Of a stretch of 64,000 bases of DNA, positions 4,886-60,490 are shown piece after piece; positions within the stretch are counted from its first letter, which is position 1; each line of letters opens with the position of its first letter. This stretch comes from Leucoraja erinacea (Eukaryota): contig NC_073407.1 of NCBI RefSeq assembly GCF_028641065.1, forward strand, positions 28,024,001 to 28,088,000, in the 5' to 3' direction. Below the pieces are notes generated by a model. It did not search any database. It was not told the origin of the DNA and was given only the letters and a program-made list of their open reading frames with translations. The translations under genes were made by a program, and so were the position numbers.

Positions 4886-5157
4886 CCTGCACTGTTCACG
4901 TGATAGGAACAGAATTAGGCCATTCATTAATTTACAAGCCTCTAAATCACGCTGGAGACCCTCCCCAAAATGCTGTGTTCAGTTGTGTACTTTCACCAGC
5001 TTATGGATCCAATTAAAATTATGATTTGTGTTACTGGAAACAAATATCTAGAGAGGATTCAACTTTCTAGGAATGCCATAATACAAATGAACTCTGTAGA
5101 CATGTGAAGAGAGTCTTTGGGCATTTACCAATGTTGTTGTGGTGTTGTCTTGCACAG

Positions 5158-5251
5158 ATCTCTCTACCACCTCAGCCGCTTGGCTGTTCCTCACCTCATC
5201 CACAGCAAGGGCTGCATTGTTAACGTGTCCAGTGTCAATGGTCAGCGCTCG
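5158..5251 (+). CDS. SDR exon
   Basis: [31 protein letters not shown]; cag/gtgagt. Confidence 0.9.
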
Positions 5252-8200: not shown

Positions 8201-8385
8201 GGTTCTGACTACGTCTCTCCCTGCAGTTCCTGAACAAGTGCAAGGTGACACACGCACTGGGCCGGCCGGGGCAGGTGCAGGAGGTCGCCCAGGCCATTGC
8301 CTTCCTGGCCTCCGATGCAGCCTCCTTCATCACCGGCGTCACCCTGCCTGTGGATGGAGGCCGCCACGCCATGTGTCCACGCTGA
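5158..8385 (+). CDS. Classical short-chain dehydrogenase/reductase (3-oxoacyl-ACP reductase FabG-like), 3' part; 5' exons lie outside the window
   Basis: Exons 5158-5251, 5964-6033, 6894-6930, 7779-7842, 8227-8385; all GT-AG and phase-compatible. Peptide has IVNVSS, catalytic YCISK (YxxxK), VRVNAVSPG and C-terminal [19 protein letters not shown]. Confidence 0.93.
5964..6033 (+). CDS. SDR exon (catalytic YxxxK)
   Basis: [23 protein letters not shown]. Confidence 0.92.
6073..6216. repeat. Minisatellite (ACAGCACCCCATAAAC / ACAGCACCC)
   Basis: Tandem units visible. Confidence 0.85.
6894..6930 (+). CDS. SDR exon
   Basis: (D)[11 protein letters not shown](S). Confidence 0.9.
7275..7770. repeat. 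Poly-C low-complexity tract
   Basis: C runs, flanked on both sides by CATCACTCTGTGTGTCAC. Confidence 0.9.
7779..7842 (+). CDS. SDR exon
   Basis: [21 protein letters not shown]. Confidence 0.9.
8227..8385 (+). CDS. SDR last coding exon
   Basis: [52 protein letters not shown]. Confidence 0.93.
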
Positions 8386-8571
8386 GGCCACGGCCACGCT
8401 GGCCCCGGCCCTGGTCACTCCCGGTCACTCCCGGTCACTCCGGGGCCAGTCCCAGTCACTCCCCGCCACTCTGGGGCCACTCTGGGGGACTCGGCCACTA
8501 GGGACACCGCTCCAAAGCCAGGCCGGGGAGAGAGGACAGAGACGGCATGACTACCCCATCCCCCCAACCAC

Positions 8572-10105: not shown

Positions 10106-10154
10106 ATGGCGGGCGCGGTGCGGACGTTGTGGGCCCGAACTTACCCGCGCTCCG
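10106..10154 (+). CDS. COQ4: COQ4 exon 1 (transit peptide); alternative same-phase donor at 10184
   Basis: [16 protein letters not shown], Arg-rich; donor G/GTATGG, phase 1 as exon 2 requires. Confidence 0.75.
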
Positions 10155-13100
10155 GTATGGTGAAGATCCCGGCGCCCGGCACAGGTACACGGCCCCCGGC
10201 ACAGGTACACGGCCCCGGCACAGGTACACGGGCCCGCACCACACCCCCCCCCCCCCCCGGCACAGGTACACGGCCCCGGCACAGGTACACGGGCCCCGGC
10301 ACAGGTACACGGGCCCGCACACACCCCCCCCCCCCCGGCACAGGTACACGGCCCCGGCACAGGTACACGGGCCCCCCCCGCACCCCCCCCCAGGCACAGG
10401 TACCGGGCCCCGGCACAGGTACACGGCGGACACAGGTACCGGGCCCCGCCACCAGGGCCCCGCACAGGTACACGGGCCCGCACACACCCCCCCCCCGGCA
10501 CAGGTACACGGGCCCGGCACAGGTACACGGCCCCGGCACAGGTACACGGGCCCCGCACAGGTACACGGGCCCGCACACACCCCCCCCCCCCGGCACAGGT
10601 ACACGGCCCCGGCACAGGTACACGGGCCCCGCGCCCCCCCCCCCCGCACAGGTACACGGGCCCCGCGCCCCCCCCCGGCACAGGTACACGGCCCCCGGCA
10701 CCCCACACGGGTACACGGGGCCCGCACAGGTACACGGGCCCGCACACACCCCCCCCCCCGGCACAGGTACACGGCCCCGGCACAGGTACACGGGCCCCGG
10801 CACAGGTACACGGGGCCCGCACAGGTACACGGGCCCGCCACACCCCCCCCCGGCACAGGTACACCCCCCCCGGCACAGGTACACGGCCCCGCACAGGTAC
10901 ACGGCCCCGCACAGGTACACGGGGCCGGCACAGGTACACGGGCCCCGCCACCCACCCCCCCCCCCGGCACAGGTACACGGGCCCCCCCCCCCCCGGCCCG
11001 GTACCCCCCCCCGCCCACGGGCCCCCCCCCCCCGGCACAGGTACACGGGCCCCCGCCCCCCCCCCCCCCCGGCACAGGTACACGGGCCCCGCCCCGCCCC
11101 CCACAGGTACACGGGGCCCGCCCACGCCCGGTACAGGTACACGGGCCCCCCCCCCCCCCCCCGGCACAGGTACACGGCCCCGCCCCCCCCCCCCGGCACA
11201 GGTACACGGGCCCGGCACAGGTACACGGGCCCCCCCCCGGCCCAGGTACACGGGCCGGGCCCCCCCCCCGCACAGGTACACGGGCCCCCCCCCCCCCCCC
11301 GGCACAGGTACACGGGCCCGCCCCGCCCCCCCCGCACAGGTACACGGGCCCGCCCCGCCCCCCCCCCCGGCACAGGTACACGGCCCCACGGGCCCCGGCA
11401 CAGGTACACGGGCCCGCACAGGTACACGGGCCCCCCCCCGGCACAGGTACACGGGGCCCCGCCCCCCCCCCCCCCGCACAGGTACACGGGCCCCCGCCCC
11501 CCCCCCCCGGCACAGGTACACGGGCCCCCCCGCCCCCCCGGCACAGGTACACGGGGCCCCGCCCCCCCCCCCCCAGGGTACACGGGGCCCCGCCCCCCCC
11601 CGGCACAGGTACACGGGGCCCCCCCCCCCCCCCCGGCACAGGTACACGGGCCCCGCCCCCCCCCGGCACAGGTACACGGGCCCCCCCCCCACAGGTACCA
11701 CAGGTACACGGGCACAGGTACCACCGGCCCCCCCCCCCCCCGGGCACAGGTACACGGGCCCCGCCCCCCCGGCACAGGTACACGGGCCCGCCCCCCCCCC
11801 CGGCACAGGTACACGGGCCCGGCCCCGCCCCCCCCCCCGGCACAGGTACACGGCCCCGGCACAGGTACACGGGCCCCGCCACAGGTACCGGGGCCCGCAC
11901 AGGTACACGGGGGCCGCCCGCCCCCCCCGGCACAGGTACACGGGCCCGCCCCGCCCCCCCCCGGCACAGGTACACGGGCCCCGCCCCCCCCCCCCCCGGC
12001 ACAGGTACACGGCCCCCGGCACAGGTACACGGCCCCGGCACAGGTACACGGGCCCCGCACAGGTACACGGGGCCCGCACAGGCACAGGGCACGGGCCCGC
12101 CCCCCCCCCCCGGCACAGGTACACGGGCCCCCCCCCCCCCCCACACAGGTACACGGGGCCCCGCCCCCCCCCCCGCCACAGGTACACGGGCCCGCCCACC
12201 CCCCCCCCCCGGCACAGGTACACGGGCCCGCCCCCCCCCCGGCACAGGTACACGGGCCCGCCCCCGCCCCCCGCACAGGTACACGGGCCCGCCCCCCCCC
12301 CACAGGTACACGGGGCCCGCCCCCCCCCCCCCGGCACAGGTACACGGGCCCGCACCCCCCCCCCCCGGCACAGGTACACGGCCCCGCCCCCCCCGCACAG
12401 GTACACGGGCCCGCCCCCCCCCCCAGGCACAGGTACACGGGCCCCGCCCCCCCCCCCACAGGTACACGGGCCCAGGTACACGGGCCCCCCCCCCCCCGCA
12501 CAGGTACACGGGCCCCGCCCCCCCCCCCGCACAGGTACACGGGCCCCGCCCGCCCCCCCCCCGCACAGGTACACGGGCCCGCACAGGTACACGGCCCCGC
12601 CCCCCCCCCCCCCCCCCCGCACAGGTACACGGGCCCCGCCCCCCCCGCACAGGTACACGGGCCCGCCCCCCCCCCCCGGCACAGGTACACGGGCCCCGCC
12701 CCCCCCCGCACAGGTACACGGGCCCCCCCCCCCCGCACAGGTACACGGGCCCCGCCCCCCCCGCACAGGTACACGGCCCCCGCCCCCCCCGCACAGGTAC
12801 ACGGGCCCCGCCCCGCACAGGTACACGGGCCCCGCCCCCGCACAGGTACACGGGCCCCGACCCCCCGGCACAGGTACACGGGCCCCCCCCCGCACAGGTA
12901 CACGGGCCCCCCCCCCCGGCACAGGTACACGGCCCCCGCCCCCCGCACAGGTACACGGCCCCCCCCCCCCCCCACAGGTACACGGCCCCCCCCCCCGGCA
13001 CAGGTACACGGAGGTACACGGGCCCCCCGCCCCCCCCGGCACAGGTACACGGGCCCCGCCCCCCCCCCGGCACAGGTACACGGGCCCGCCCCCCCCCCCG

Positions 13101-16100
13101 GCACAGGTACACGGGCCCCGCCCCCCCCCCGGCACAGGTACACGGGCCCCGCGCCCCCCCCCGGCACAGGTACACGGGCCCCCCCCCCCCGCACAGGTAC
13201 ACGGGCCCCGCTCCCCCCCCGGCACAGGTACACGGGCCCCGCCCCCCCGGCACAGGTACACGCCCCCCCCCCGGCACAGGTACACGGGCCCCGCCCCCCC
13301 CCGGCACAGGTACACGCCCCCCCCCCCCGGCACAGGTACGCGGGCCCCGCCTCCCCCCCCCCCCGGCACAGGTACATGGGCCCCCCCCCGGCACAGGTAC
13401 ACGGGCCCCCGCACCCCCCGGCACAGGTACACGGGGCCCCGCCCCCCCGTACAGGTACACGGCCCCGCACAGGTACACGGGCCCCGCCCCCCCGGTACAG
13501 GTACACGGCCCCGCCCCCCCCATGCATAAGTACACCCTCCTCTCACACAGCCCACCATCACCTGTAACTCACCCCCCTTTCACCTCGTCCATCACCGCTC
13601 TTCGCCACCTCACTCAACTCACCTTCACTCCCCCACCCTCACTTCCTTTTCTCACTCACTCACTCACCCACCCACTATCCCACTCACTCACTCACTCACT
13701 CACTCACTCACTCACTCACTCACTCACTCACTCACTCACTCACCCCACCTCACTCCTCACTGGAAGCAACCAGTGATAGACGGGTTTTTATGTGTTAAAG
13801 GCATCAGGTGACACAGGAAGTTGTACAAACAGATGGGCCATGACCTTATTAACCAAAGGATAATCCCAGCAGGCTGAATGCTGCTGATATTCACCCATCC
13901 TCAGTTTCCCCAACGCCCATCCCTCTTTGAAGCCCATATTGCTGCTTTGGTTTCTGAGCTCCCTGCATCTTGTGACAGGCACCAGTAATGCTGTGCTACA
14001 GACAGTCCGTGCGGCTAGTATGGACACGGTTACTGAAGATGGATATTGCAGCATCTACCACACACACATTCCCACCAACTCTCTGCAAAAAGCCCTGCTA
14101 GCGGCCGGCTCAGCATTCATGTCTCTGTACGACCCATACCGTCATGGTGAGTACATGCCTCTATTACTCTCATCATGCCCGCCCTTTAATGAAAGCCTCA
14201 TTGCAGCTTGTATTGCCTCTCCATTGATCATTGCCTGCCTTGTTTGATGCTCATCAGCCCATGCCCAGGCTGTTTCTAGATCATGTATGTCGGCACATGC
14301 CATTGGACGGTGGTGAACGGTGTTACTCTCTCTGATTCTCCTGCTATCTGTGTCCTGTGGCTGCCATTGGCCAGCTTGACCAGCCGGGGGTATATGTGGG
14401 TACTGGTGTATATGTGGGTACTGGTGTATATGTGGGTACTGGTGTATATGTGGGTACTGGGGTATATGTGGGGGTATATGTGGGTACTGGTGTATATGTG
14501 GGTACTGGTGTATATGTGGGTACTGGGGTATATGTGGGGGTATATGTGGGTACTGGTGTATATGTGGGTACTGGTGTATATGTGGGTACTGGGGTATATG
14601 TGGGGGTATATGTGGGTAATGGGGTATATATGGATACTGGGGTATATGTGGGTACTGGGGTATATGTGGGTACTGGGTATATGTGGGTACTGGGGTATAT
14701 GTGGGGGTATATGTGGATACTGGGGTATATGTGGGTACTGGGGTATATGTGGGGGGGTATATGTGGGTACTGGGGTATATGTGGGTACTGGGGTATATGT
14801 GGGGGTATATGTGGGTACTGGTGTATATGTGGGTACTGGGGTATATGTGGGTACTGGGGTATATGTGGGTACTGGGGTATATGTGGATACTGGGGTATAT
14901 GTGGGTACTGGGGTATATGTGGGGGTATATGTGGATACTGGTGTATATGTGGGTACTGGGGTATATGTGGGTACTGGGGTATATGTGGGTACTGGTGTAT
15001 ATGTGGGTACTGGGGTATATGTGGGTACTGGTGTATATGTGGGTACTGGGGTATATGTGGGTACTGGGGTATATGTGGGTACTGGTGTATATGTGGGGGT
15101 ATATGTGGATACTGGTGTATATGTCGGTACTGGGGTATATGTGGATACTGGGGTATATGTGGGTACTGGGGTATATGTGGGTACTGGGGTATATGTGGAT
15201 ACTGGGGTATATGTGGGGGTATATGTGGATACTGGTGTATATGTGGGGGTATATGTGGATACTGGTGTATATGTCGGTACTGGGGTATATGTGGGTACTG
15301 GTGTATATGTGGGTACTGGGGTATATGTCGGTACTGGGGTATATGTGGATACTGGGGTATATGTGGGTACTGGTGTATATGTGGTGGGTACTGGGGTATA
15401 TGTGGATACTGGTGTATATGTGGGTACTGGGGTATATGTGGATACTGGTGTATATGTGGGTACTGGGGTATATGTGGGTACTGGGGTATATGTGGGTACT
15501 GGGGTATATGTGGATACTGGGGTATATGTGGGTACTGGGGTATATGTGGGTACTGGGGTATATGTGGGTACTGGGGTATATGTGGATACTGGTGTATATG
15601 TGGGTACTGGGGTATATGTGGGTACTGGTGTATATGTGGGTACTGGTGTATATGTGGGTACTGGGGTATATGTGGGCACTGGGGTATATGTGGGGGTATA
15701 TGTGGGTAATTGCTCCCAATATTCCAAAAGCAGCCTGCCCAGCACCTTTTAGAGCCTCATCACCATCTTCTCACGGGCAGAGTGATGGGCAGGACATGCC
15801 AACATTGCCAGCTCTGCCCCGTCCTGAATAACCAGAAGTAATCCTCACCCTCTGTCGCTGTGTGGTAGTTGTTGACAACCCCTTTAATGGGATGTCCACT
15901 TTGTTGAGCTTAACGTGCTCTCGTGTTATAGATATGGTGGCCGTCTTGGCAGAAACGACGGGCCAGTTGGCAGTGCGTACACTCAGGGACAGGATGAGAA
16001 ACGATGTGGAGGGACACCGCATCCTGCAGTAAGTGTGGTGAGTGTGAGTGTGGCTGTGCGTGTGAGTGTGGCCATGGTGTGCGTGTAAGTGTGAGTGGCT

Positions 16101-22100: not shown

Positions 22101-22843
22101 AAACTGCAGATGGAGTTTAATCCAAGCAATTGTGATGTTTGTTCACCATCTCTCATCCCCAGTCCTGAGGTTCCCCATTGCAAGGGGAAATGTATAGTTT
22201 GGGGGCAGGATCTTTAACAGCACGGATGTACAGAGGGATCTTGGGGTCCAAGTCCATAGCTTCCTTAAAGTAGAAACACAAGTAAATAGATTGGTAAAGG
22301 TAATGTATGGTATGTTTGCGGTGATCAGTCAGGGCATTGAGTATTGGAGTTGGGAAATCATGTTGTGTGCAATTCTGTTTGTCTCATTACAGGAAGATGT
22401 GGAGGCTTTGGAGACTGCAGAAGATATTTACCACAATGCTGCCAGTATTAGAGGGATAGAGGAGGCTGGACAAACTTGGATTGTTTTGTCTGGAGTATTG
22501 AAGGCGAAGGGGAGAACATAGAAGTTTATGTAACAATGAGAGGCAGAGATAGGGTAGACAGTCGAATCTTTTCCCATTTCGCATTGCTATGACAGCAAGG
22601 TTTGAGTACAGGATTCGAGGTAAATGTCTTGCCTGTTCGTGACGCATTCTTGTGTGTCCCTGTGGCAGGAATATCCGTGTTTTAACAAGAGACCTGATCC
22701 CATGGGCTGTGCAGTGCGGTCGAGCTGCTCACTGTGTGCTAAACATCTACTACGAGAACCGATGGGACCAGAGCTTAGAGTCACTGCGGGAGGAGATTGG
22801 AATCATCCCCTGCCCCCCTCTTCAATGCCCGACTAAGGCATAA
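10106..22843 (+). CDS. COQ4: Ubiquinone biosynthesis protein COQ4, mitochondrial (~271 aa)
   Basis: Exons 10106-10154, 13979-14146, 15932-16028, 16945-17047, 19261-19390, 21320-21413, 22669-22843 (816 nt, in frame). Hallmark [28 protein letters not shown] (HDxxH..E), [26 protein letters not shown]. Confidence 0.96.
10175..13520. repeat. GC-rich minisatellite, core GCACAGGTACACGG plus variable C runs (COQ4 intron 1)
   Basis: About 3.3 kb, roughly 100 or more units; no stop codons, giving the spurious 1100-1300 aa ORFs. Confidence 0.97.
13650..13745. repeat. (CACT)n microsatellite
   Basis: Direct observation. Confidence 0.9.
13979..14146 (+). CDS. COQ4: COQ4 exon 2
   Basis: [31 protein letters not shown]. 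Confidence 0.9.
14387..15708. repeat. 18-bp minisatellite GGTACTGGGGTATATGTG (COQ4 intron 2)
   Basis: Direct observation. Confidence 0.97.
15932..16028 (+). CDS. COQ4: COQ4 exon 3
   Basis: (D)[31 protein letters not shown](Q). Confidence 0.95.
16029..16836. repeat. GT-rich minisatellite (GTAAGTGTGAGT / GTGTGAGTGTGTCCGTG) starting at the COQ4 exon 3 donor
   Basis: Direct observation. Confidence 0.95.
16945..17047 (+). CDS. COQ4: COQ4 exon 4
   Basis: [34 protein letters not shown]. Confidence 0.95.
17690..17910. mobile_element. Palindromic Penelope-type terminal repeat pair
   Basis: Inverted ~90-bp arms GACACAAAA..CTGGAGTAACTCAGCGGG..GGCAG..CTCTGGAGAGAAG and its reverse complement; family recurs many times in the window. 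Confidence 0.7.
18490..19095. repeat. Minisatellite CCTGTGTATCTGTGTGG
   Basis: Direct observation. Confidence 0.95.
19261..19390 (+). CDS. COQ4: COQ4 exon 5
   Basis: [43 protein letters not shown]. Confidence 0.96.
19505..19731. mobile_element. Palindromic Penelope-type terminal repeat pair
   Basis: Same inverted architecture as 17690-17910. Confidence 0.7.
21320..21413 (+). CDS. COQ4: COQ4 exon 6
   Basis: [31 protein letters not shown]. Confidence 0.95.
21775..22625 (+). mobile_element. Old CR1 LINE fragment with nested repeats
   Basis: Degenerate [15 protein letters not shown]...[16 protein letters not shown]. Confidence 0.65.
22669..22843 (+). CDS. COQ4: COQ4 exon 7 (last)
   Basis: [37 protein letters not shown]...*. 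Confidence 0.93.
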
Positions 22844-23309
22844 CATGGGGGCTTTGGTAAGAACGTTTGTACAATCATTTATAATAATGATAGGTTGGGC
22901 TGCAGACAGGAGTGTGCCTGGAACAGTCAGTGCCCAGTGTAAGGAGGCAACAGGTCAACTATACAACTATACTCTGGGGGGGGGGGGGGGGGGGGGGGGC
23001 AGAGGGGACACGTCCCCTCCATGTTTTGATAGCGAGTTCCGCTCTTGCATGCTGGCTACCACAATAACCTCACTGACATGCTCTCATTCTATTCTCTGGC
23101 CTTTGCAGGGTTATTTGATGCACCCTGCCCTTTGTTCAACCTGCTCACCAATGTCGGGTTTAGAAATACATTATTGATCTCAATCACAAGCTCTACATTT
23201 TCTTTTGTTATTTTACCATTTTCAGGTGTAGAGTTCTTTCTTTGAATTATTTCAATGGAAATCTTCTTTAGTGACCATGAGTGGAACTGAAGTCCAGGAC
23301 TATGTCCAG

Positions 23310-23605
23310 TCAGGGCTCTGCCTCTGTGGGGACTGGGCATCTCTCTGGGACGGCCGTCCCCGAGAGGGCAGTGTGCCTCCAACTGTCCTCCCGCAGGGCT
23401 GCTGCCACTCGAGGCTGACTGCGCTGGACTGCACTGGAGATTTGCTGCAGTTTCCAGTCTGTTCTGATCAATGCATCGTCCAGGGTGAAAACTCCATCTC
23501 GTGTACGTCGCACACTGGTACACACCGCTGATGATTTCAGCTCCAAGCCAATCTCATGGATGATCTTGCGCAGGTACTGCTGGGTCTCGTGGACACACTG
23601 GACCT
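23310..23605 (-). CDS. TRUB2: TRUB2 exon 8 (last)
   Basis: (E)VQCVHETQQYLRKIIHEIGLELKSSAVCTSVRRTRDGVFTLDDAL...AEP*. Confidence 0.94.
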
Positions 23606-26600
23606 CTGTGGGAAACGGAAAACAAAGTGAGGGACTGCTGGGCAGAAGGAGCCAGGATCATCAATGAGAAACCCCCTGGACCAGTCACACCACACAGCAA
23701 CACTGCGACAACCCGTATCTGACCGCTGGGATATCCAGAGTTTAGCGGACTCACTGGCTGACAGTCACAAGGGCTGACGGGGGCATTCACTACTACTGTG
23801 TAATAACTAATAAAAAAGTAAAGTAAAGGTGGTTGAGAGGATTAGTTTGGATCTGTTTTTCTGAGCACACCACATTATCATTGTCACTGCACCACAGGTG
23901 ATCAGACACTAGTGTGTCAGTGCAGTACAGGTGAGCAGACACTGGTGTGTCAGTGCAGTACAGGTGAGCAGACACTGGTGTGTCAGTGCACTACAAGTGA
24001 TCAGGCACGAGTGTGTCATTGCAGTACAGGTGATCAGACACTAGTGTGTCCGTGCACTACTAGTGATCAGACACAAGTATGTCAGTGCAGTACAAGTGAC
24101 CAGACACGAGTGTGTCATTGCAGTACAGGTGAGCAGACACGAGTGTGTCCGTGCAGTACAAGTGACCAGACACTAGTGTGTCCGTGCAGTACAAGTGACC
24201 AGACACAAGTATGTCAGTGCAGTACAAGTGACCAGACACGAGTGTGTCATTGCAGTACAGGTGAGCAGACACGAGTGTGTCCGTGCAGTACAAGTGACCA
24301 GACACTAGTGTGTCAGTGCAGTACAGGTGATCAGACACTAGTGTGTCCGTGCACTACTAGTGATCAGACACGAGTGTGTCCGTGCGTTCACCGCAGCAGA
24401 GGCAACATGGACCTTACAGTAAGGGATGTAAATTATCTTCACTTTACCAACATACCCAGAGTGAAGTTAGGAAGGGAGAACTGGCTGCACCGAATGCCGG
24501 TGATGATGGGAGGGGACTTGTGCAGTGGCCGTAACATCCCTCGACAGGCAAGCTCATACGCCGCTTGGCTTTTCAAATCAATGCCGGAATACCTAGGGTG
24601 GGAGAGTTGACATGGTTAGCCCCACACATCCACCGCCTGACACACCTGTTCCCCACCCATGGGCTTAGACACACTCTCATACCCATCTATATGCTGAATA
24701 TGGCTTTGGGACAGACTGTTCCTAAAGACTGTACTATAGATGTTCCTGACAGACTACAATAACTGGTCCTACAGACTGGACAGTGAGCTTTGAATCGAGT
24801 ACTGCCCTTGCCCAGATACATACGTGATGAGAGCTTTCTGGTGACTGCCCTGGATCACAGCGATGATGCGCTCCAGTCTGTCCAGGGTGATGTGATCTGC
24901 AACAACAGTGTAGTTTTAGTACAAACATCCCCACACCCACTTCCTCAGTGGCCCAGACTGCAGTGTTACAGTACAGATGTCCCCACACTTGCATTCACAC
25001 AATGGTCGTGGGGCCCAGGGCACAGCCTGCAGTGTTACAGTAAATATGTCCCCACATTTGCATTCACACAGTGCTTGTGGGGCCTGGGTCACAGCCTGCA
25101 GTGTTACAGTACATATGTCCCCACACTTGCATTCACACAGTGCTTGTGGGGCCTGGGGCACAGCCTGCAGTGTTACAGTTCAACAGTGCTGCATCCTAAG
25201 GGGCACAGCCTGCAGTGTTACAGTACAACAGTGCTGCATCCTAAGGGGCACAGCCTGCAGTGTTACAGTACAACAGGTTACAACAAACGGCATTTCGTTT
25301 GGACCTCCAGGGGTCCAAATGACAAATAAATTGACTCTTGACTCTCTTGACTCTTGACTCAACAGTGCTGCATCCTAAGGGGCACAGCCTGCAGTGTTAC
25401 AGTACAACAGTGCTGCATCCTCAGGGACCCAGCCTGCAGTGTTACAGTGAAGCACCAGGAACACCGATTCCTCACTCAGCCCCATTTAGCATCGAGGGTA
25501 GAATATACAGCAGGCTGGACAGAATCAAACTAACTAGGAACTGACTCCCAAACCTAATGAGCGTGGGGAGGCACCAACAATGGTTTTTCCACAGGGGCCA
25601 CACGGTCAGCCACAATGACAATGGAGCAGATGTTCTGACGTGGATGAAGTTTAAGGGATACACACACAGAGGGTGGGACTCTGGGGAGGTGTGAGGGAGG
25701 GGTGGTAGCTGGCACTGGGGAGCTGGTGCTGAGTGATTGGGGCAATGAGCTGGGGGGGGAGGGGGGGCTCCTTTCCCATATCATCTTGCTCCCACCCCAT
25801 CACCCAATTTCCTACCCTTACCCCCCTCCTGCTCCACTTCTATCTGCCTTTACCTCTCCACGGGATTACCTCAGCACATTGTTTGTGGCTTATATAAAAC
25901 TGGGGCATCTGGTCAATGAGTTGTGTCCACTACCCATCACTGTGTGGGGCAAGAAACATATCAATGCTGCTGAGAACACTGACCGTAGGTTGTCTTCTCA
26001 ATCAGCCTGCCCGTGTCGGAGAAATCCTCTGTTGCTGTTCCGAAGCTTCCGTGTACTGTGTATTCCTGGGAAGCCAGAACACTGGACCATTAACATGAAA
26101 CAGCAGCCTCAATTGCAACCTGGACAGAAAGCAGCAACTTTATCCTGCCCTTGGACAGTGAGTGGGAGGAAGCAACATCACCAGCTCCTGTTCACTGTCC
26201 AGTAAACTTGGCTGCACCAAGCTGAACATACATGGAGTTTATTACAGTGAACGGGCCACACTTCATCCCTCTCCTCCCCCACCGCCGAATACTCTGACTG
26301 AAGAAGCCTCATGTACTGAAAGCCTTCTTGACTACCCTATCTCCTGTGACATCACTGTCAAGGAACAGTGTACCTGCACTAGATCCCTCTGCTCCACAAC
26401 ATTCCCTGTCTATCTGTGACATCACTGTCAGGGAACTGTGTACCTGCACTAGATCCCTCTGCTCTACAACACTGCCCAGGGCCCTGCCATTCACTGTGTA
26501 GGACAGTCCTGCCATCCCAAAATGCAACACCTTGCACTTCTCTGCATTAAGCTTCCATTGATCAGCCCACTTGCCCAGCTGATCAAGTTTTTGACAACCA

Positions 26601-29600
26601 TCGTCACTATCTACGATACCACCCACTTTAGTGTCATCTACAAACTTACTCATCATGTATTCTACATTCTCATCCAATTCATTGGAATATAGTCTGACGA
26701 AGGGTTTTGGCCCGAAACTTTGCCTATTTCCTTCGCTCCATAGATGCTGCTGCACCCGCTGAGTTTCTCCAGCACTTTTGTCTACCTTCATTGAAATATA
26801 CCACAACTAGCCCGTTCCCATCCACCTCAACCGTCAGACCGCTCACATTAAAATAAATGCAGCCGTGCTCCTGCCTATTCATCACCTTCCAATCCGACGT
26901 CCAGCCTCTCACCTGCCTGTCCTGCATTGTACTCCTCCCCCCCTCCCATACCAATCTAGTTGAGGAGGTGGCTTCTGCAGAGGAGAGTGCGATGATGCTA
27001 GGGTAGGGAAGGCCACCAGCTGGGCATGCAGCTCCCTCTATTCTTACCTTGGTCAGATGACAGTCCTGCAGGTAAGACAATTGCTTGTTGCCGCTGCCAA
27101 CTGCGAGCACTGTGGAGAGACAATGGGGCCGTGAGAGACTCTACCTACATGACATTCCACACAGCATATGCCAAAGCCCCCCTGAGGTACACTAGAGCTA
27201 CCGAGCTGATTGTGGGGACAGCACTCGCACCCCCACCTTGCGCAAGATGCAACTTCCACAGCACCTACAGGTTGCCGTCCATCTGCCCTTCCTCACGCTG
27301 CTTCCAAAACACTCAGACCTGATGTGTGGTATCTCAGCACCACTTTTGCAGCCAGCCTCCTCACCCGTTGCCCTGCCAGGTACCAAACTCTCTGTGTCTT
27401 TCATCAGCCCCTTAGAGTGCAATATCCAAAACCAAGAGCTGGAAATGCAGGGAACACTCAGCAAGTTCAGTGACCTCTGTACAGAAAAATGAAGAATTCA
27501 GATCCAGCACAGGTCATTAGATGCATCCTCCACACACAGACTTGCCCGGTGTCGAGTGCACACTGGGTATTCACTGACTGCTGGTTTTGATACTCGATTA
27601 AAGTTAGTTTGTTCTAATCTGAAACACAACTCCCTTCAATATTTTGCATTTTTATTTATTTCTGATTCCAGCATCTGCAGTTTTTAAAATTTCTAATTTT
27701 ATTTGTTATCTGTTGAGATTTTTAAAGCATTTGATAGGATGGAAAGTCCTGAACAAGCAGGCCAATTTGAAGAATTCACAGATTGGTTGGGGACCAGCTC
27801 CATCCAAGACCGCAGGAAATGGCAGAGAATTGTGGACGCAGCCCAGAACATCACACAAACCAACTTCCCTTCCATTCTCCATCTATACCTCACGCTGCCT
27901 CGGCAAGGCCAGCAGCATAATCAAGGACAAATCACACCCTGGCCACTCCCTCTTCGCCTCTCTCCCATCAGGCAAAAGGTGTAGAAGTGTGAAAACACAC
28001 ACCTCCAGATACTGGGCCAGTTTCTTCAGTTACTATCTGGCAACTGAACCAAGCTACCACAACTAGAGAACAGTCCTGAGCTCCTCACCACCTTATTGGG
28101 GACCCTCAGACTATCTTTGATTGGACTTTACTCGTTTTACCTGCACTAAACTTTATCATGTATCTGAACATGGTGAATGGCTCGATTGTAATCATGTATT
28201 GTCTTTCTACTGACTGGTTAGCACACAAACAAAATCTTTTCACTGTACCTCAGTAGAAGTGACAATAAACTAAAATAAATAACTGCCTGGAGCAGGGTCA
28301 CTCCAAACCACTGCTGTGGCCCCAAGCACATTGCCAACGCCGGAAAAACCTTCAACATCCACCAGTATGACTAAACATACTAACATTTAAATGAATATAT
28401 AAAATACAAACATTTGAGCAGATTTTAATCAGCTGAAGGGCTAGTGATGAGAGAAGCTGCAAGATTTTGCAATCTTCCTATCCAACACGACTGAACTCTA
28501 ACAGCAACTGGTCATGGCAGGACTGAAGAGATGTTTAAGGAACTGCAGATGCTGGAAAAATCAAAAGTAGACAAAAAATGCTGGAGAAACTCAGCGGGTG
28601 AGGCAGCATCTACAGAGAGAAGGAATAGGCGACGTTTCGGGTCGAGACCCTTCTTCAGACTGAAGAGTTTAGTAAGTTTATTGTCATGTACAGTGAAAAG
28701 CTTTTGTTGCATGCTAACCAGTCATCAGAAGGACTATACAAGATTTCAATCAGGCCTTCCACGGTGTACAGATACAGGATAAAGATAAAGTCCAGCAAAG
28801 TCCGATCAAGGATACGCCGAGGGTCACCAATCAGGTCAATAGTAGTTCAGGACTGCTCTCTAGTATGTAGTAGAATGTTTCAGCTGCATGACCTAACCCT
28901 AACCCAGTTAGGAAGAAACTGTCCCTGAATCTGGAGGTGTGTGATTTCACACGTCTGCAACTCTTGCTGATGGGGTCCAGGTACCTTGTGCTTATGAGTG
29001 GCACTGACAGCAATCATCCCACTGTATCTTGGGGCCTGTGATAATAAAGACACTGTTGAAAATAGAGAGTGGGTCCACGTGAGGATCTTCCTGGAGATCC
29101 AGCAGCTGCTGAACAAACTCCAATGGCCACTGCTGGCTGGGGCATTGGGGCAGCTTATCCTGGGCTGGAGAGCCTGTTAGCCTGTGAACAGGATCCAACC
29201 AGACACTCGGGTGCTGGGGCTGTGATCCACACCAGTCAGACCAGCCGAGACCAACATTTCCAGCGTTAAATTGCCATTTTGCTCTTTTACAAAATCTTAA
29301 AACTTATAATTTCATCATAAACACACATGCGCTGTGATTGAATAATCGGATAAACAACAAAACGCTGAGGACACAGATTCAATGCCAGACTCACCGAACA
29401 CACCAGATGATCTCCAGTCCAGGCGATGACCAGCTCCTATCCTCAAACCAACAAACTTTGGGCCTCTCACTGCAACACACAACACGGTTCATACAGTGTG
29501 GAAACAGGTAACACATCAACATATAAAACACTAAGCAGACTCCCAAACCCAGCATTAAACACTCCAATACAGCAGACTCCCAAACCCAGCAATAAACAAT

Positions 29601-32162
29601 AAACTCCAAGGCAGACAAAAATGCTGGAGAAACTCAGCGGGTGAGGCAGCATCTATGGAGCGAAGGAAATAGGCAACATTTCGGGCCAGCATCTGTAGTT
29701 CCTTCTTAAACATTAAACACTCCAATACCGCAGACACCCAAACCTGGAATTAAACACAATACATCAGACTCCCAAAGCCAGCATTGACCAATACTGCAGT
29801 GTGTGTCCCTCTACCCAGCACTTAACTCCAACACTACAGCATATCAGTTCTCATGGACAACATTGGTTCCCCCCCCCTCCCTCTCCAGAGGCCCTCCCTT
29901 GCCCCTTACCCCGTGGGTGGTTGGCCAGGGCAGGCAGCTGTGCGACAGTCAGGTTGGTTTCTGTGCCACTTATACCCTGGCTGGTGGTCGGCAGAAAGCG
30001 GATCTGATCGTGTGGAAGTGGACATTCCGACGCGTTGAGGTCTGGCGATGGAATGAAAGGATGAGACTTGTCACTAGTTCCCACCTGGATCACGCATGAG
30101 CACGGAAGACTCATCATAGTGTGATCACCCCCAGCTAATGGAGTTACCACTTGCAGCAAACTGTGGGCTCGATCTACAGGTTCCCCCTGCATCAACATTC
30201 CTCAGCGCCGTTTACTTGACCAAGGTTGACCAAGGGAAGCAGGGCAAACAATGCAGTTACCACATACAATGTAAATATTTTATGTCTAGTGGCATAATGA
30301 TCCCACAAGGGTTGGTGTGAGAGGAGGCTCCGTGTCACAGATCAGTATCCAGCGATCAGCATCGGATGCTTGGGCCCAGTAGGGACAGGATGGGGGGGGT
30401 GGGGTTATGGCGGGGGGGGGCTAGTGAAGGGGAGCGGAAGAGGGGGGGGGGCGTTGGTTTGGAGGGGGGGGGCGTTGGTTTGGAGGGGGGCTGATGGTGA
30501 GCTGGGTGATGGTTGGGGTTATATTGAGGGGGGGGGGGGGGGGGGTTATAGTGAGGGGGGGGGGGGGTTATAGGGTGATTTCACTAAAGGTCACTGGAGC
30601 GTAGATCCGCACCCACGTGACCAAAATTCTCAAGTGGAGGACACTCGAGGGTTCGGTACATGTTAGTGGATGGGAAAAAACGCATTTTCCCACCCGTTAA
30701 AAACATAGAAAACGGCGAGGTTGTGAGCTGCAATTTACTGTGCCAGTCGGGGTGACCGTGAGGCACAGCTACCTAGATTTACAGGGGGAAAAAAAGATAG
30801 CAAGTAAGGTAAATTCAAGAGGGAACTGAAGGTACCAAACCGACGGAAATGAACAGCCGACATTTGCCGTGGATATTTAAAGGTCCAAAATATCGGGAAT
30901 TATCGCGTTTGCTCGCTGAATTTCATCAAAAGTAAGGCATTATTAACTTACCTTTGATAAATTCAGCGAGCAAACGCGATAATTCCCGATATTTTGGCGG
31001 GGGTTGTGGTTGGGGGTCACCAACCGAGGCACGGGAGCCGGGGGTCAGGGGGCGTGTGTCCGGGGTCAGGGCCGGAGACTCACCGCGGACCAGGCCGGTC
31101 TCCACCGTGAGCCGGGGGTCAGCGGTCAGGGCTGGGGGTCAGGGGTCGGGGACCCACCATGCACCAGGCCGGTCTCCACCGTGTGCGGGGGGGTCAGGGG
31201 TGGGGGTCAGGGACCCACCATGCACCAGGCCGGTCTCCACCGTGTGCCGGGGGGTCAGGGGGTGGGGGTCAGGGGTCGGGGACCCACCATGCACCAGGCC
31301 GGTCTCCACCGCGTGCCGGGGGTCAGGGGCCGGGGGTCAGGGGCCGGAGACCCACCGTGCACCAGGCCGGTCTCCACCGTGTGCCGGGGGGTCAGGGGTC
31401 AGGGGTCAGGGCCGGGGGGGGTCAGGGGTCGGGGACCCACCGTGCACCAGGCCGGTCTCCACCGTGTGCCGGGGGGTCAGGGGTCGGGGGTCAGGGACCC
31501 ACCGTGCACCAGGCCGGTCTCCACCGTGTGCCGGGGGTCAGGGGTCAGGGGGTCGGGGCCGGGGGGGTCAGGGGTCGGGGACCCACCGTGCACCAGGCCG
31601 GTCTCCACCGCGTGCCGGGGGTCAGGGGTCGGGGTCGGGGGGCGTGTGCCGGGGCCGGGGGTCAGGGGGCGTGGGTCCGGGGCCGGGGGTCCAGGGTGCA
31701 CACCGCGTGCCGGGGGTCAGGGGTCAGGGCGGGGTCAGGGCCGGGGGGGTCAGGGGTCGGGGACCCACCGTGCGTGCCGGTCCACCGGGTCCGGGGGGGG
31801 CAGGGGCCGGGGGGTCAGGGGTCGGGGACCCACCGTGCACCAGGCCGGTCTCCACCGCGTGCCGGGGGTCAGGGGACCAGGGACCCACCATGCCGGTCTC
31901 CACCGCGTGCCGGGGGTCAGGGGGCCGGGGGTCAGGGGGTCAGGGGTCGGGGCCGGGGGTCAGGGGTCGGGGACCCACCATGCACCAGGCCGGTCTCCAC
32001 CGCGTGCCGGGGGGTCAGGGGTCAGGGGTCGGGGCCGGGGGGGTCAGGGGTCGGGGACCCACCGTGCACCAGGCCGGTCTCCACCGCGTGCCGGACGCTT
32101 CGCCAGTTGACGGCGGGCGGTTTGTAAACGGCGAAGATGCCGCGGAGGGAGCGCGCCGCCAT
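23310..32162 (-). CDS. TRUB2: Mitochondrial pseudouridine synthase TRUB2 (~318 aa)
   Basis: Exons 32162-32063, 30041-29910, 29469-29395, 27109-27048, 26065-25984, 24896-24824, 24592-24456, 23605-23310 (957 nt, in frame). Motifs GIFAVYKPP, GHRLD (catalytic Asp), GRLIEKTTYDH, IHEIGLELKSSAVCTSVRRTRDG. Confidence 0.96.
23893..24385. repeat. 33-bp minisatellite GCAGTACAGGTGATCAGACACTAGTGTGTCAGT
   Basis: Direct observation. Confidence 0.93.
24456..24592 (-). CDS. TRUB2: TRUB2 exon 7
   Basis: YSGIDLKSQAAYELACRGMLRPLHKSPPIITGIRCSQFSLPNFTL. Confidence 0.94.
24824..24896 (-). CDS. TRUB2: TRUB2 exon 6
   Basis: (D)HITLDRLERIIAVIQGSHQKALI. Confidence 0.94.
24955..25450. repeat. Tandem repeat with core CACAGCCTGCAGTGTTACAGT, interrupted by an 83-bp retro-insertion
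   Basis: Direct observation. Confidence 0.88.
25984..26065 (-). CDS. TRUB2: TRUB2 exon 5
   Basis: EYTVHGSFGTATEDFSDTGRLIEKTTY. Confidence 0.94.
26305..26680 (-). mobile_element. CR1 RT fragment
   Basis: SKFVDDTKVGGIVDS...KCKVLHFG. Confidence 0.85.
27048..27109 (-). CDS. TRUB2: TRUB2 exon 4
   Basis: (V)LAVGSGNKQLSYLQDCHLTK. Confidence 0.92.
27775..28280 (+). mobile_element. Rex1/Babar-like LINE 3' fragment
   Basis: SIYTSRCLGKASSIIKDKSHPGHSLFASLPSGKRCRSVKTHTSR; tail GACAATAAACTAAA. Confidence 0.8.
28662..28955 (-). mobile_element. Rex1/Babar-like LINE 3' fragment
   Basis: RRVKSHTSRFRDSFF; tail GACAATAAACTTACTAAACT. Confidence 0.7.
29395..29469 (-). CDS. TRUB2: TRUB2 exon 3
   Basis: (V)RGPKFVGLRIGAGHRLDWRSSGVF. 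Confidence 0.93.
29910..30041 (-). CDS. TRUB2: TRUB2 exon 2
   Basis: (D)LNASECPLPHDQIRFLP...LPALANHPR. Confidence 0.9.
30571..30997. mobile_element. Probable non-autonomous DNA-transposon fragment ending in a fold-back
   Basis: Sharply bounded AT-richer, CpG-retaining block between G-rich tracts; 39-bp perfect inverted repeat at its end. Confidence 0.45.
31035..32062. repeat. Minisatellite made of TRUB2 exon-1 3' end plus donor copies separated by GGGGTCA spacers
   Basis: About 12 copies of GACCCACCRTGCACCAGGCCGGTCTCCACCGYGTGCCGG. Confidence 0.95.
32063..32162 (-). CDS. TRUB2: TRUB2 exon 1
   Basis: MAARSLRGIFAVYKPPAVNWRSVRHAVETGLVH; donor G/GTGGGT. Confidence 0.92.
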
Positions 32163-32245
32163 CTTGCTGCCGGCGTCGTCACTTCCGGCCCTGGAGGTCC
32201 CGCCCAACTCGCCTCCCCGTTGGCCGGCGGCTGCTGATTGGACGC
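32155..32245 (-). promoter_or_regulatory. TRUB2 core promoter motifs
   Basis: AAGATGGCGGC (YY1-type) over the ATG, CCGGAAGT (ETS/GABP) 32188-32181, CCAAT 32241-32237. Confidence 0.6.
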
Positions 32246-32574
32246 TGGCCCGTCACTCAGCGGGACGGGCAGCATCTGTCACCCGTTCCTTCCCACAGAT
32301 GATTCAGATTCAACTTTAATTGTCATTGTCAGTGTACAGTACAGAGACAACGAAATGCATTTAGCATCTCCCTTGAAGAGCGATGAAGATGCCGCCTGAC
32401 CCGCTGAGTTTCTCCAGCACTTTGTGACTTAGGCAGATGTTCTGTTTAACAAAATCGAAGGTAGACAAAAATGCTGGAGGAACTCAGCGGGCGAGGCAGC
32501 ATCTATAAGCGAAGGAAATGTGGGCCGTTTCGGGTCGAAACCTTCTTTCTTCAGACGCTCTGCTCGGTTTCCCT

Positions 32575-37300: not shown

Positions 37301-38278
37301 TCACCCGGACGCGGACACCGCGAGGGTTCCAATACGAGGTCGTCGATCGCGATGTACGAGGAGGAAGCTCCGCCTCCGGCCGCTTCAAACACCAGCTGCA
37401 GGGACAGAGTATTGGTCAGCACTGGTGACTGGCAGTGACCCAGTGCCCCGCCCCCCCAGTGACCCCCGCCCCCAGTGACCCAGTGACCCCCGCCCCCAGT
37501 GACCCAGTGACCCCCGCCCCCCAGTGACCCAGTGACCCCCGCCCCCAGTGACCCCCGCCCCCAGTGACCCAGTGACCCCCGCCCCAGTGACCCCCGCCCC
37601 CAGTGACCCCCGCCCCCAGTGACCCCCCCCCCAGCCCCCCCCAGTGACCCAGTGACCCCCGCCCCAGTGACCCCCGCCCCCAGTGACCCCCGCCCCCAGT
37701 GACCCCCGCCCCCAGTGACCCAGTGACCCCCGCCCCAGTGACCCCCGCCCCCAGTGACCCCCGCCCCCAGTGACCCCCGCCCCCAGTGACCCAGTGACCC
37801 CCGCCCCAGTGACCCCCGCGCCCCCAGTGACCCCCGCCCCCAGTGACCCCCGCCCCCCAGTGACCCCCGCCCCCAGTGACCCAGTGACCCCCGCCCCCAG
37901 TGACCCCCGCCCCCAGTGACCCCCAGTCGGTGGAGGTGCCGGTCAGTTACCCTCCAGACATGTGCACCCCACTCTGGCCAGATCATGATGCATGGGGGTC
38001 GTGTGAAGGGGAGGGGGAGGGGCGGTGTGGCGCTACCGGTCAGTTACCCTCCAGTCGTGTGTCGTGTGCACCCCCACTCTGGCCAGGGTCCACGTCTGGA
38101 GCGGGCCAGTGTCCAGGGTCCAGACCAGACGCTTCGTCTGCAAGTCTTCCTCCATGTAGACGTCCAGCGAACCTGTTGGAGCAAGAACCGGAACATTCCG
38201 TATATGGGGAGGGGTCTGTACACAGGGGGTGGGGTCTGTACACAGGGGGAGGGGTCTGTACACAGGGGGAGGGGTCTG

Positions 38279-38314
<36 letters not shown>

Positions 38315-41300
38315 GGAGCTTCAACCTGATCTAACCTTATCTGTGACGGGTCAGATAAGGGGGAGGTTTAGTTTCTCAAACCTGTACTCACGGTGGGGGG
38401 GGCAGAATGACCAGGGGGTTACCTGGGGACAGGTGGGTGGGGGTCAGGCCGTTACCTGGGCTGTCGGCACAGGTGTGGGCACGGACATGCAGCAGGTGGT
38501 GGGGGTGGGGGGAATAGGGAGGGTGAGGGGGGGGACAAGGGCAGTGGGGGGTTCAGGGAAACACAGAGAAACAGTTGCAGGAGCAGGCCACTCGGCCCTT
38601 CGAGCCAGCACCACCATTCAATATGATCATGGCTGGTCATCTAAAATCAATACCACGTTCCAGCTTTCTCCCCATACCCCTTGATTCCTTTAGCCCAAAT
38701 AACTAAATCTAACTCCCTCTTGAAACCATCCAGTGAATTGGCCTCCACTGCCGTCTGTGGCAGAGAATTCCACAGATTCACAACTGTCTGGGTGAAAACG
38801 TTTTTCCTCATCTCGGTCCCAAATGGCCTCCCCTTTATTCCTAAACTGTGACCCCTGGTTCTCGACTCCCCCAACATGGGGAACATGTTTCCTGCATCTA
38901 CCCTGTCGAATCCTTTAAGAATTTTACATGTTTCTATAAGATCACATCTCATCAATCAATCAATCAATCAGTTTTATTCGTCAACCTTCAAAATTGCCTT
39001 ATCTCAAATCCTCTCACAATGAAGGTCAACATGCCATTAGCTTTCTTCACTGCTTACCGTACCTGCTTGCTTACTTTCATTGACTGGTGTACAAGCACAC
39101 CCAGGTCTCATTGCACCTCCCTTTTCCTAATCTGACACCATTCAGACAATAATCTGCCTTCCTAACGTCACATTTATCCACATTATACTGCATCACCCAA
39201 CCTATCCCAGTCACTCTGCAGCCTCATAGCGTCCTCATCACAGCTCACACTGCTTTGTGTCATCCGTACACTTGGAGATGTTACATTTAATTCCCTTGTT
39301 AATACAGTGCCCTCCATAATGTTTGGGACAAAGACCCATCATTTATTTGTTTGCCTCTGTACTCCACAAGTTGAGATTTGTAATAGAAAAAAATCACATG
39401 TGGTTAAAGTGCAGATTGTCAGATTTTTAATACATTTTGCTTGTCGGCGCTGGTGTGGGAGGGGCTGGGAAGGGGGGGCAGGGGGAGGGGGGTTCAGGTT
39501 GGGGGAGGGGAGGGGGGTTACCTGGGCTGTCGGCACTGGTGTGGGAGCAGCTGGGATGGGGGGGCAGGGGGAGGGGGGTTCAGGTTGGGGGAGGGGAGGG
39601 GGGTTACCTGGGCTGTCGGCGCTGGTGTGTACACGGAACTGTAGGCAGGCGATGTCCAGGGGGGGTGTTGGGTTTCTGACACCAGCTGCAGCCGCTGACT
39701 GGTGGGGAGTGGCCGGTGGCTGGTGTCGGCCAACATGTAGTGTCCTGCAGCAAATACCATCGGTCAGTCGTCTGCCCAGTGGGAACCCTGACCTCCGGGG
39801 CAATGGACCCGGCCCTGCCCCCCCCCCCCCCCCCCTAGCCCCCTCCCCCAAACCCCCCATGGCCCACCAAGGGCATGGAGTGGGGGAGCAGCAGGGAGCC
39901 ACCCTCTCCCTCTACACTGCCCCAGTGAGGTGCTGCCCCCTCCACACGGACATGGTACCGCCTGAGGCCGGCATGCACAGAGGTTCCCGACGAGGCTACA
40001 GCCCCCTCCCCCTCCTACCCCACCACCCCCCTCCCCTCCCACCCCACCACCCCCTCCCCTCCCACCCCACCACCCCCTCCCCTCTCCTACCCCACCACCC
40101 CCTGCGCTGGAGTAACTCAAGCAGCATCTCTGGAGAACATGGACAGGTGACATTTCAGGTCCTGAAGCAGTTACTCCAGCACTTTGTGCCATTTTTTGTA
40201 AACCAACATCTGCAGTTTCTTGTTTGTATATATTGTGTGCAGTGTCCACAGACCAGTGTGTACAGTGTCCCAGTGTTTGAGGCCAGTGTGTGCAGCGTCG
40301 CAGTGTGTGAGGCCAGTGTGTACAGTGTCCCAGTGTGTGAGGCCAGTGTGTGCAGCGTCGCAGTGTGTGGGGCCAGTGTGTACAGTGTCCCAGTGTGTGA
40401 TGCCAGTGTGTGCAGCGTCGCAGTGTGTGAGGCCAGTGTGTGCACTGTCCCAGTGTGCACAGTGTCCCAGTGTGTGTGGCCAGTGTGTGCACTGACCCAG
40501 TGTGTACAGTGTCCCAGTGTGTGCAGCGTCCCAGTGTGTGAGGCCAGTGTGTGCAGCGTCCCAGTGTGTGCAGCGTCCCAGTGTGTGAGGCCAGTGTGTG
40601 CAGCGTCCCAGTGTGTGAGGCCAGTGTGCGCAGTGTCCCAGTGTGCGAGGCCAGTGTGTGCACTGTCCCAGTGTGCGCAGTGTCCCAGTGTGCGCAGTGT
40701 CCCAGTGTGCGCAGTGTCCCAGTGTGTACAGTGGCCCAGTGTGGACAGTGGCCCAGTGTGTGCAGTGGCCCAGTGTGTGCAGTGTCCCAGTGTGTGAGGC
40801 CAGTGTGTACAGTGTCCCAGTGTGAGAGGCCAGTGTATGCAGTGTGCCAGTGTGTGCAGTGTCCCAGTGTGTACAGTGTCCCAGTGTGTGCAGTGTCACA
40901 GTGTGTGAGGCCAGTGTGTGCACTGTCCCAGTGTGTACAGTGTCCCAGTGTGTGCAGTGTCACAGTGTGTGAGGCCAGTGTGTACAGTGTCCCAGTGTGT
41001 ACAGTGTCCCAGTGCGTACAGTGTCCCAGTGTGTGAGGCCAGTGTGTACAGTGTCCCAGTGTGTGCACTGTCCCAGTGTGAGAGGCCAGTGTGCTCTGTT
41101 TGTGAGGGTGGTGCAGCGGTGAGGATGGGAAGGTTATGCTGACCTTGCTCTGTCCCCAGGGTGCTGTCGATGGGCGGCCGGTTCTTGGTTCTTGTCCCTG
41201 AGTCCCCGCTCTCCCGCTGCCAGGTCCGGGCTCCCGTCGATGTGAAGGAACAAGAGTCGGCTTCAAAGCTGCAGAACTGCTGTGGTTCACAACTCCCTCC

Positions 41301-60171: not shown

Positions 60172-60184
60172 CTCTGGGGCCGGC

Positions 60185-60490
60185 GTGCGCGGCCCGACCC
60201 GGTCCTGCGTCAGCGTGCGCGGCCCGGGTCGTCCTGCGTCAGGGTGCGCGTCCCCCGCCATCTTCCTGCGTCAGCGTGCGCGTCCCCGCCCGGTCCTGCG
60301 TCAGCGTGCGCGGCCCCGCGTCAGCGTGCGCGTCCCCGCCCGGTCCTGCGTCAGCGTGCGCGTCACCGCCCGGTCCTGCGTCAGCGTGCGCGTCCCCGCC
60401 CGGTCCTGCGTCAGCGCGCGCGGCCCCGCCCGGTCCTGCGTCAGCATGCGCGGCCCCGCCAGCCCCAGTCCAACGTGCGCGTCCCCGGTC
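60185..60490. repeat. ~30-bp CpG-rich tandem repeat immediately upstream of the PHPT1 ATG
   Basis: CCCGGTCCTGCGTCAGCGTGCGCGTCCCCG, about 9 units. Confidence 0.92.

Follow-up and report, generated by a model that had tools for sequence, protein, structure and literature searches.

The window analysed (the whole stretch of DNA, 64,000 nucleotides) contains the TRUB2 gene on the minus strand, with COQ4 (plus strand) and a MAM-domain gene (minus strand) as its neighbours. The last exon of the gene is a 100% match to the RefSeq TRUB2 of the little skate, Leucoraja erinacea, and a tblastn search with the RefSeq protein (P0002) placed eight exons between 32162 and 23313 (Table 1). The coding part of exon 1 starts with the ATG at 32162 and comprises 100 nt, corresponding to 33 codons and one further nucleotide. 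It is followed by an intron of 2,021 nt, and alignment shows the exon 1/exon 2 junction at the same place as in other vertebrates. The exon-2 acceptor given in the first-pass annotation, which was made from the sequence alone, is correct by protein mapping and is used by RNA reads.

At the 5' end of exon 1, RNA depth declines across 32163-32189, and three reads stop at 32168 with a non-genomic tail. The 5' untranslated region appears to be very short, with reads stopping 6-25 nt ahead of the ATG, and the sequence upstream (32168-32245, minus strand) contains what we take to be CCAAT, GC-box and ETS-like motifs. COQ4 and TRUB2 are arranged tail to tail in the window (10106-23310); the human genes lie head to head. 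The Rhinoraja RefSeq model P0005 joins the MAM-domain gene and TRUB2 into one, with the gene order found in the window, and this fusion is probably an annotation join.

Inspection of TRUB2 intron 1 revealed a minisatellite of 13 units, each containing an exon end, a donor and a C-rich spacer. The first unit begins about 31-32 nt inside exon 1 and spans the exon-intron boundary. Beyond the authentic donor there are 12 more donor-like sites (31978, 31888, 31833, 31768, 31586, 31502, 31440, 31355, 31287, 31218, 31157 and 31083). GT is kept in all 12, as part of GTGGGT, the hexamer of the first donor, in 11 of them and of GTGAGT in the last. The 31-nt exon end is kept in ten of the spare copies with 0-4 substitutions, and is shortened in the other two (31888, 31768). 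Unit spacing is 55-90 nt, plus one gap of 182 nt. Even with nine mismatches allowed, the 39-nt junction sequence matched nothing else on either strand of the 64 kb, so the array is not due to chance.

The first-pass annotation had described about 12 downstream copies of the exon-1 end and donor, with the GT mostly intact, and both statements agree with these counts. Its view that intron 1 is built from the array is right as to the presence of the array, but the array occupies ~1,030 of the 2,021 intron bases, about half. The spacers do carry TGA, as it had noted for some frames, but one of these is in the reading frame itself, at codon 47, before the second donor.

Donor strength was assessed as the number of consensus matches (of 9) and as the pairing energy with the complement of the consensus from PMC1557585. 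By this scoring, the spare donors equal the first on both measures, with 7/9 consensus matches each and pairing energies of -7.9 to -8.9 kcal/mol, compared with -8.1 kcal/mol for the first donor. The best-pairing site is the GTGAGT of copy 13 (-8.9 kcal/mol).

Table 1. Coordinates of the features of TRUB2, its intron 1 array and related junction repeats in the window.
Feature	Position	Strand	Remarks
TRUB2 exon 1	32063..32180 (coding 32162-32063; 5' end about 32168-32185)	-	P0002 residues 1-33 match 100%
Minisatellite, 13 units (exon end, donor, C-rich spacer)	31041..32093 (as a tandem array, 31062-32094)	-	period about 55-90 nt
Last 31 nt of exon 1, repeat copy 1	32063..32093	-	letters differ between assembly and RNA reads
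Authentic 5' splice site of intron 1, GTGGGT (GT 32062-32061)	32057..32062	-	9/9 reads leave in register to exon 2
In-frame TGA, codon 47, in first spacer	32022..32024	-	ends any read-through product
Copy 2, donor at 31978	31973..32009	-	end common to copies 10, 11 and 12; matches 3/9 RNA reads
Decayed donor-less units, 182-nt stretch ending in copy 6	31587..31767	-	sequence
Copy 13, most diverged, donor GTGAGT	31078..31114	-	last 5 letters match 6/9 RNA reads (His33 to Arg)
Array right edge, 7-nt stretch equal to start of copy 13	31035..31041	-	sequence
TRUB2 exon 2	29910..30041 (acceptor AG 30043-30042)	-	protein mapping; joined to exon 1 in RNA
TRUB2 exons 3-8, intact	23310..29469	-	tblastn of P0002, 93-100% per piece
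MAM-domain gene donor 39607 and exon end, duplicated 86 nt downstream	39442-39629	-	sequence
MAM-domain gene donor 38047 and exon end, duplicated 97 nt downstream	37945-38085	-	sequence
COQ4 exon-1 end and donor (10185), repeated	10170..13514	+	108 exact 10-nt junction sites

To place the TRUB2 array in context, we surveyed tandem arrays and donor copies across the window. Thirty-one arrays of at least 100 nt cover 16,478 of the 64,000 bases (16.5 of 64 kb). A downstream copy of the junction 15-mer is present for 4 of the 29 mapped donors; at one mismatch, the copies number 9 for TRUB2 exon 1, 103 for COQ4 exon 1, and 2 and 1 for two donors of the MAM-domain gene. Such copies show no clear enrichment (4/29, compared with 82/1,500 GT sites outside arrays, p 0.08). 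Arrays start near 12/29 donors, against a random mean of 2.3 (0/5,000 shuffles), and end near 7/29 acceptors. Since acceptors also lie near arrays, a donor-specific cause is not supported. Most simply read, the region is prone to repeats, and its arrays now and then catch a junction.

The COQ4 array is of the same kind as that of TRUB2 and larger, with AG directly before GT in each unit. Three further stretches were noted. Directly after the COQ4 exon-3 donor (16038-16818, plus strand) lies an array rich in consensus-like donor hexamers, without the exon end. A 30-nt-period array at 60183-60460 (minus strand), just upstream of an apparent first exon, contains a copy of the start-codon context; the gene, judging from its translation, is presumably PHPT1. 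Exons at 5100-8390 (plus strand), which from their translation we take to belong to a short-chain dehydrogenase-like gene, include two donors with arrays starting 16-39 nt after them.

Use of the TRUB2 donors was investigated by placing reads and contigs of four of the 24 listed runs (DNA run X2, RNA run X24, and runs X6 and X9 from two related organisms, B and C) on 32010-32260, which contains exon 1 and the first unit. This placement covered 251 bases, and reads internal to the array were detectable only via their likeness to the first unit. For X24, an oligo-dT run of which 5% was read, nine reads perhaps derived from about five fragments were recovered. All nine cover bases unique to exon 1, with loose ends corresponding to exon 2. 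Depth is 9 at 32091-32108 and falls to 0 throughout 32063-32010; none of the nine X24 reads shows spacer letters ahead of the unit. Transcripts from the second or third donor, the behaviour of the human CBS and 6-16 genes, were likewise found in 0/9 X24 reads.

All of the X24 junction reads to 30041 (9/9) thus start from the first donor position, in agreement with the fallback offered in the first-pass annotation, that the cell picks the first donor. At one-sided 95% confidence, read-through is at most 28% for nine independent reads, or 45% for five fragments. The RefSeq TRUB2 protein of L. erinacea is likewise built on the first donor. The other 12 donors are likely silent. A naive mapper would place these TRUB2 reads as splicing from distal copies, and simple junction counts would then wrongly seem to show that donors compete.

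The assembly's last five exon-1 bases were present in 0/9 X24 reads, which depart from the reference at 32065 (n = 3) or 32068 (n = 6). Computed junctions, in which the copy-1 exon carries the last five letters of copy 2 or copy 13, reproduce both the positions of these breaks and the letters. The three-read variant equals the end of copies 2, 10, 11 and 12, and is silent at His33. The six-read variant has the two substitutions of the copy-13 end (transversion at 32067, transition at 32065) and converts His33 to Arg. At 32087 and 32089, two further sites at which copy 13 departs from copy 1, no X24 difference was listed for these six reads. With a copy-13 end and copy-1 letters upstream, the six reads are therefore mosaics of copies 1 and 13, with the switch inside a 19-nt run identical in the two copies. 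The ratio of 6 to 3 reads is compatible with two alleles (p 0.51).

Support for a genomic origin of this variation comes from DNA and from relatives. In run X2, two exon-anchored contigs with depths of 195 and 27 fork at 32087, a site varying among copies; the fork is inferred from the geometry of contig overlaps, and the depth of the minor contig is 12%, not 50%. The exon-anchored DNA contig of organism C (X9) also departs from the reference at 32068. Among relatives, the Amblyraja TRUB2 exon encodes Leu25-Thr26, as does copy 13. Residue 33 is basic in most relatives (Lys in 11/19 and Arg in 2/19 aligned), and is His in both other skate TRUB2 proteins seen. The protein cluster (two members) contained no variant TRUB2 protein of L. 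erinacea.

The silent variant and the fork at 32087 are CpG-type transitions, which may arise repeatedly without any exchange; the strong argument for exchange lies in the copy-13 end alone, with its two changes. Sites 32087 and 32067 are found in all four combinations, which needs either exchange or double recurrence. The assembly's own copy-1 end might be a polishing error. The non-genomic tail at 32168 suggests a template-switching library, and template switching can itself create mosaics. It is likely that the exon end exchanges sequence with the intronic copies, on the basis of six reads from one cDNA run in which a library artefact is possible. Overall, we favour, with a probability of roughly 0.6, a boundary minisatellite whose reads issue from the first donor, whose spare donors are likely silent and whose copies likely exchange letters with the exon end.

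We considered whether the copies might instead be wholly inert, the exon ends being older alleles, recurrent point changes or a mis-polished copy 1, with no ongoing exchange. L. erinacea is highly heterozygous (1.6%), and the assembly described in the accessible part of the same report was polished from noisy long reads, although it may not be the assembly of the window (PMC10115646). The two CpG-type sites are also in keeping with inert copies. Recurrence at such sites does not explain why six reads combine both copy-13 changes (32067, 32065) with copy-1 letters upstream, and the four combinations of 32087 and 32067, together with the His33 of both other skate proteins, weigh in the same direction. 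We therefore regard wholly inert copies as unlikely.

The first-pass annotation had proposed that the donors compete, with copy number tuning expression. We examined the products that the distal donors would make. The frame of exon 1 meets the TGA of codon 47 (32024-32022) 43 bases before the second donor. Every distal-donor product would be a 46-residue peptide without the catalytic domain, whose stop has seven junctions downstream. RNAs containing a stop with junctions downstream are degraded, and a stop very near the start can partly escape. Distal-donor TRUB2 RNAs are thus predicted to be decay targets.

A premature stop arising from an alternative donor, as in regulated unproductive splicing, is therefore present here. 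No unproductive TRUB2 isoform, in the form of a read-through or spacer read, was seen in the nine reads of X24, a run in which decay was not blocked. Under the proposal, spare donors would take a minor share of splicing, their RNAs would stop at codon 47 and decay, and copy number would tune TRUB2. All 12 spare donors keep GT and score like the first, decay would conceal such RNA, and human CBS and 6-16 do splice at their nearest pseudo-sites, according to the available part of PMC1557585. Against this, 0/9 reads extend past the first donor, at a bound of up to 28% that decay could exceed, and according to PMC1557585 the pseudo-sites of F7 are silent even without a stop and when strengthened. 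The presence of arrays near many junctions of this window also makes a special purpose unnecessary. The tuning proposal is thus unsupported, and we consider it quite unlikely.

Distal donor use giving a longer targeting peptide, which had also been proposed, is excluded for TRUB2, because the codon-47 stop precedes every spare donor. Re-initiation at ATGs of the array was considered and rejected (0/5 in frame with exon 2). In COQ4, reading on past the exon-1 donor keeps the frame open up to codon 1,154, and 31/107 later donors are in frame. The COQ4 RefSeq isoform X1 (P0133) has six extra residues corresponding to one in-frame 18-nt unit, which occurs at 11404-11421 and 12569-12586. The proposed longer targeting peptide may apply to COQ4, not TRUB2, assuming that the X1 model rests on RNA reads.

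The mosaic reads could also arise if the last donor were truly used, and reverse transcription or PCR skipped from copy 13 to copy 1 over the 19-nt repeat, mimicking an exon-1 read. Copy 13 does hold the best-pairing donor, the 980-nt array folded alone pairs its two ends in the centroid, and amplification could disfavour the GC-rich insert. Skips between direct repeats have been described in up to 30-70% of cDNA reads, according to the available text of PMC8240250. However, no unskipped parent was found, with spacer depth at 0 even though the array is ~eight times longer than exon 1 and DNA contigs of 43-47 nt were placed there, and every one of the six reads would need to land on copy 1. All 20 of 20 shuffles fold better than the array (z +6.8), and the would-be distal mRNA has no copy 1-copy 13 pair above 0.1. 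In addition, DNA of organism C departs from the reference at the same base (32068), and two thirds of the mRNA would be non-functional. Such skipping is very unlikely. A two-step splicing scheme excising copies 1-13 as an intron was also discarded, the shared 19-nt run being without an AG directly followed by GT.

DNA evidence for the array itself was obtained from three of the runs. X2, from a different sample, gave contigs for a copy with its spacer, for copy 13 and for the flank downstream of copy 13. Summed X2 depth reaches ~2,600 over the unit against 153 over unique exon 1, although such depth is no copy number. Runs X6 and X9 gave unit-plus-spacer contigs, with depths of 89 vs 13 and 91 vs 36, respectively; the unit/exon-1 depth ratios differ between runs and do not equal copy number. 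Because copies are present in the DNA of X6 and X9, the array appears to be older than the species. The comparison of individuals and related species called for in the first-pass annotation thus showed copies in X2, X6 and X9; no contig among the runs placed on 32010-32260 spans the whole array. An assembly artefact is extremely improbable: long-read assemblies can inflate GC-rich repeats and the array is unspanned by any placed contig, but its copies differ by structured substitutions, and the contigs of the second sample and the raised depth in organisms B and C recur outside this assembly.

Returning to a boundary minisatellite that exchanges letters with the exon end, we propose the following history. 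Seven letters at the start of copy 13 recur 74 bases further into the intron, and this match is likely the slippage point of the first duplication, of a 74-nt unit, as far as the letters can tell. Slippage or unequal crossing-over at this exon/intron match would have duplicated a 74-nt junction piece, presumably before several skate lineages split. The unit would then have expanded to the 13 copies with variable spacers seen in the sequence. Copy 13 and its flank are probably closest to the original junction, because the 7-nt match is best with the copy-13/Amblyraja form of the exon. The working copy 1 would since have acquired letters of inner copies, perhaps along with the weaker donor.

In the proposed mechanism, the most upstream donor would win even over a better-matching downstream one, as suggested by the nine reads and known from F7. 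Any leak to the spare donors would stop at codon 47 and is expected to end in degradation or a useless product. Since the first unit is part of the coding sequence, array turnover by contraction, unequal exchange or conversion could rewrite codons 25-33. Variants that are tolerated, His33 to Arg among them, would persist, and the last codons would differ between individuals.

We regard the TRUB2 array as most likely a neutral by-product of its repeat-prone surroundings and not as a regulatory device. If the mosaics are true alleles, boundary arrays are not fully inert, and raise the substitution rate of the coding bases that they include. More broadly, we see an even chance that junction minisatellites of skates act as reservoirs, feeding codon changes (TRUB2 His33 to Arg and 25-26) and COQ4 units (+6 residues) into the N-termini of mitochondrial proteins as standing coding variation, and that they could swap the donor. 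A search of PMC and bioRxiv found no description of exchange between boundary-minisatellite copies and a coding exon end, and a literature search for TRUB2 in skate and for skate minisatellites found nothing on this locus.

Chicken immunoglobulin loci undergo gene conversion from silent donor cassettes, a process that is programmed and somatic. Their likeness to our proposal, in which silent partial copies supply an expressed exon, is a resemblance only; for TRUB2, in contrast, nothing beyond occasional germline repeat turnover is suggested. The accessible part of PMC10078293 held nothing bearing on boundary-spanning units. Falsitrons, as described in the available part of PMC8240250, resemble TRUB2 in having direct repeats flanking a GC-rich stretch and mosaic cDNA reads. 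The 19-nt run identical in copies 1 and 13 provides direct repeats at both ends, but unlike falsitrons TRUB2 has no stable end-joining hairpin in context, its ends pairing only in the array folded alone, and no unskipped parent reads.

The closest parallels are the human boundary minisatellites covered in the accessible part of PMC1557585. In human CBS intron 13 and the interferon-inducible 6-16 gene, the layout is as in TRUB2 but the nearest pseudo-sites are used, whereas none was used in the nine TRUB2 reads; the COQ4 array may behave like these, given the RefSeq isoform with one extra 18-nt unit. The minisatellites of LMNB2 (100-bp x 10-15) and PDGF (81-bp x 16-18) are like that of TRUB2 in having long units, similar copy number and use of the authentic donor only. 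In the 37-bp VNTR of human F7 intron 7, splicing is confined to the donor lying furthest upstream, and converting pseudo-sites to GTGAGT did not make them compete (Borensztajn et al. 2006, PMC1557585, in the part available).

F7 and TRUB2 share a first unit spanning the exon-intron boundary and a donor repeated downstream with the same hexamer (in TRUB2, GT in 12/12 and the hexamer in 11/12). In both, only the most upstream site is used, for TRUB2 in 9/9 reads of one run with a bound of 28%, and a downstream GTGAGT does not win. By the features examined, the TRUB2 layout belongs to this known F7-type class of boundary minisatellites. Unlike that of F7, as far as the available text describes it, the TRUB2 array lies at a first exon, is made up of 13 uneven units and occurs in several skates. 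Its repeat takes in 31 exon bases (ten codons) where that of F7 takes in 4, so turnover of the TRUB2 array can change the protein sequence; no mention of gene conversion was found in the accessible part of PMC1557585. The TRUB2 array adds a fish case to this class, with splicing at the first donor despite a better-matching donor 980 nt downstream.
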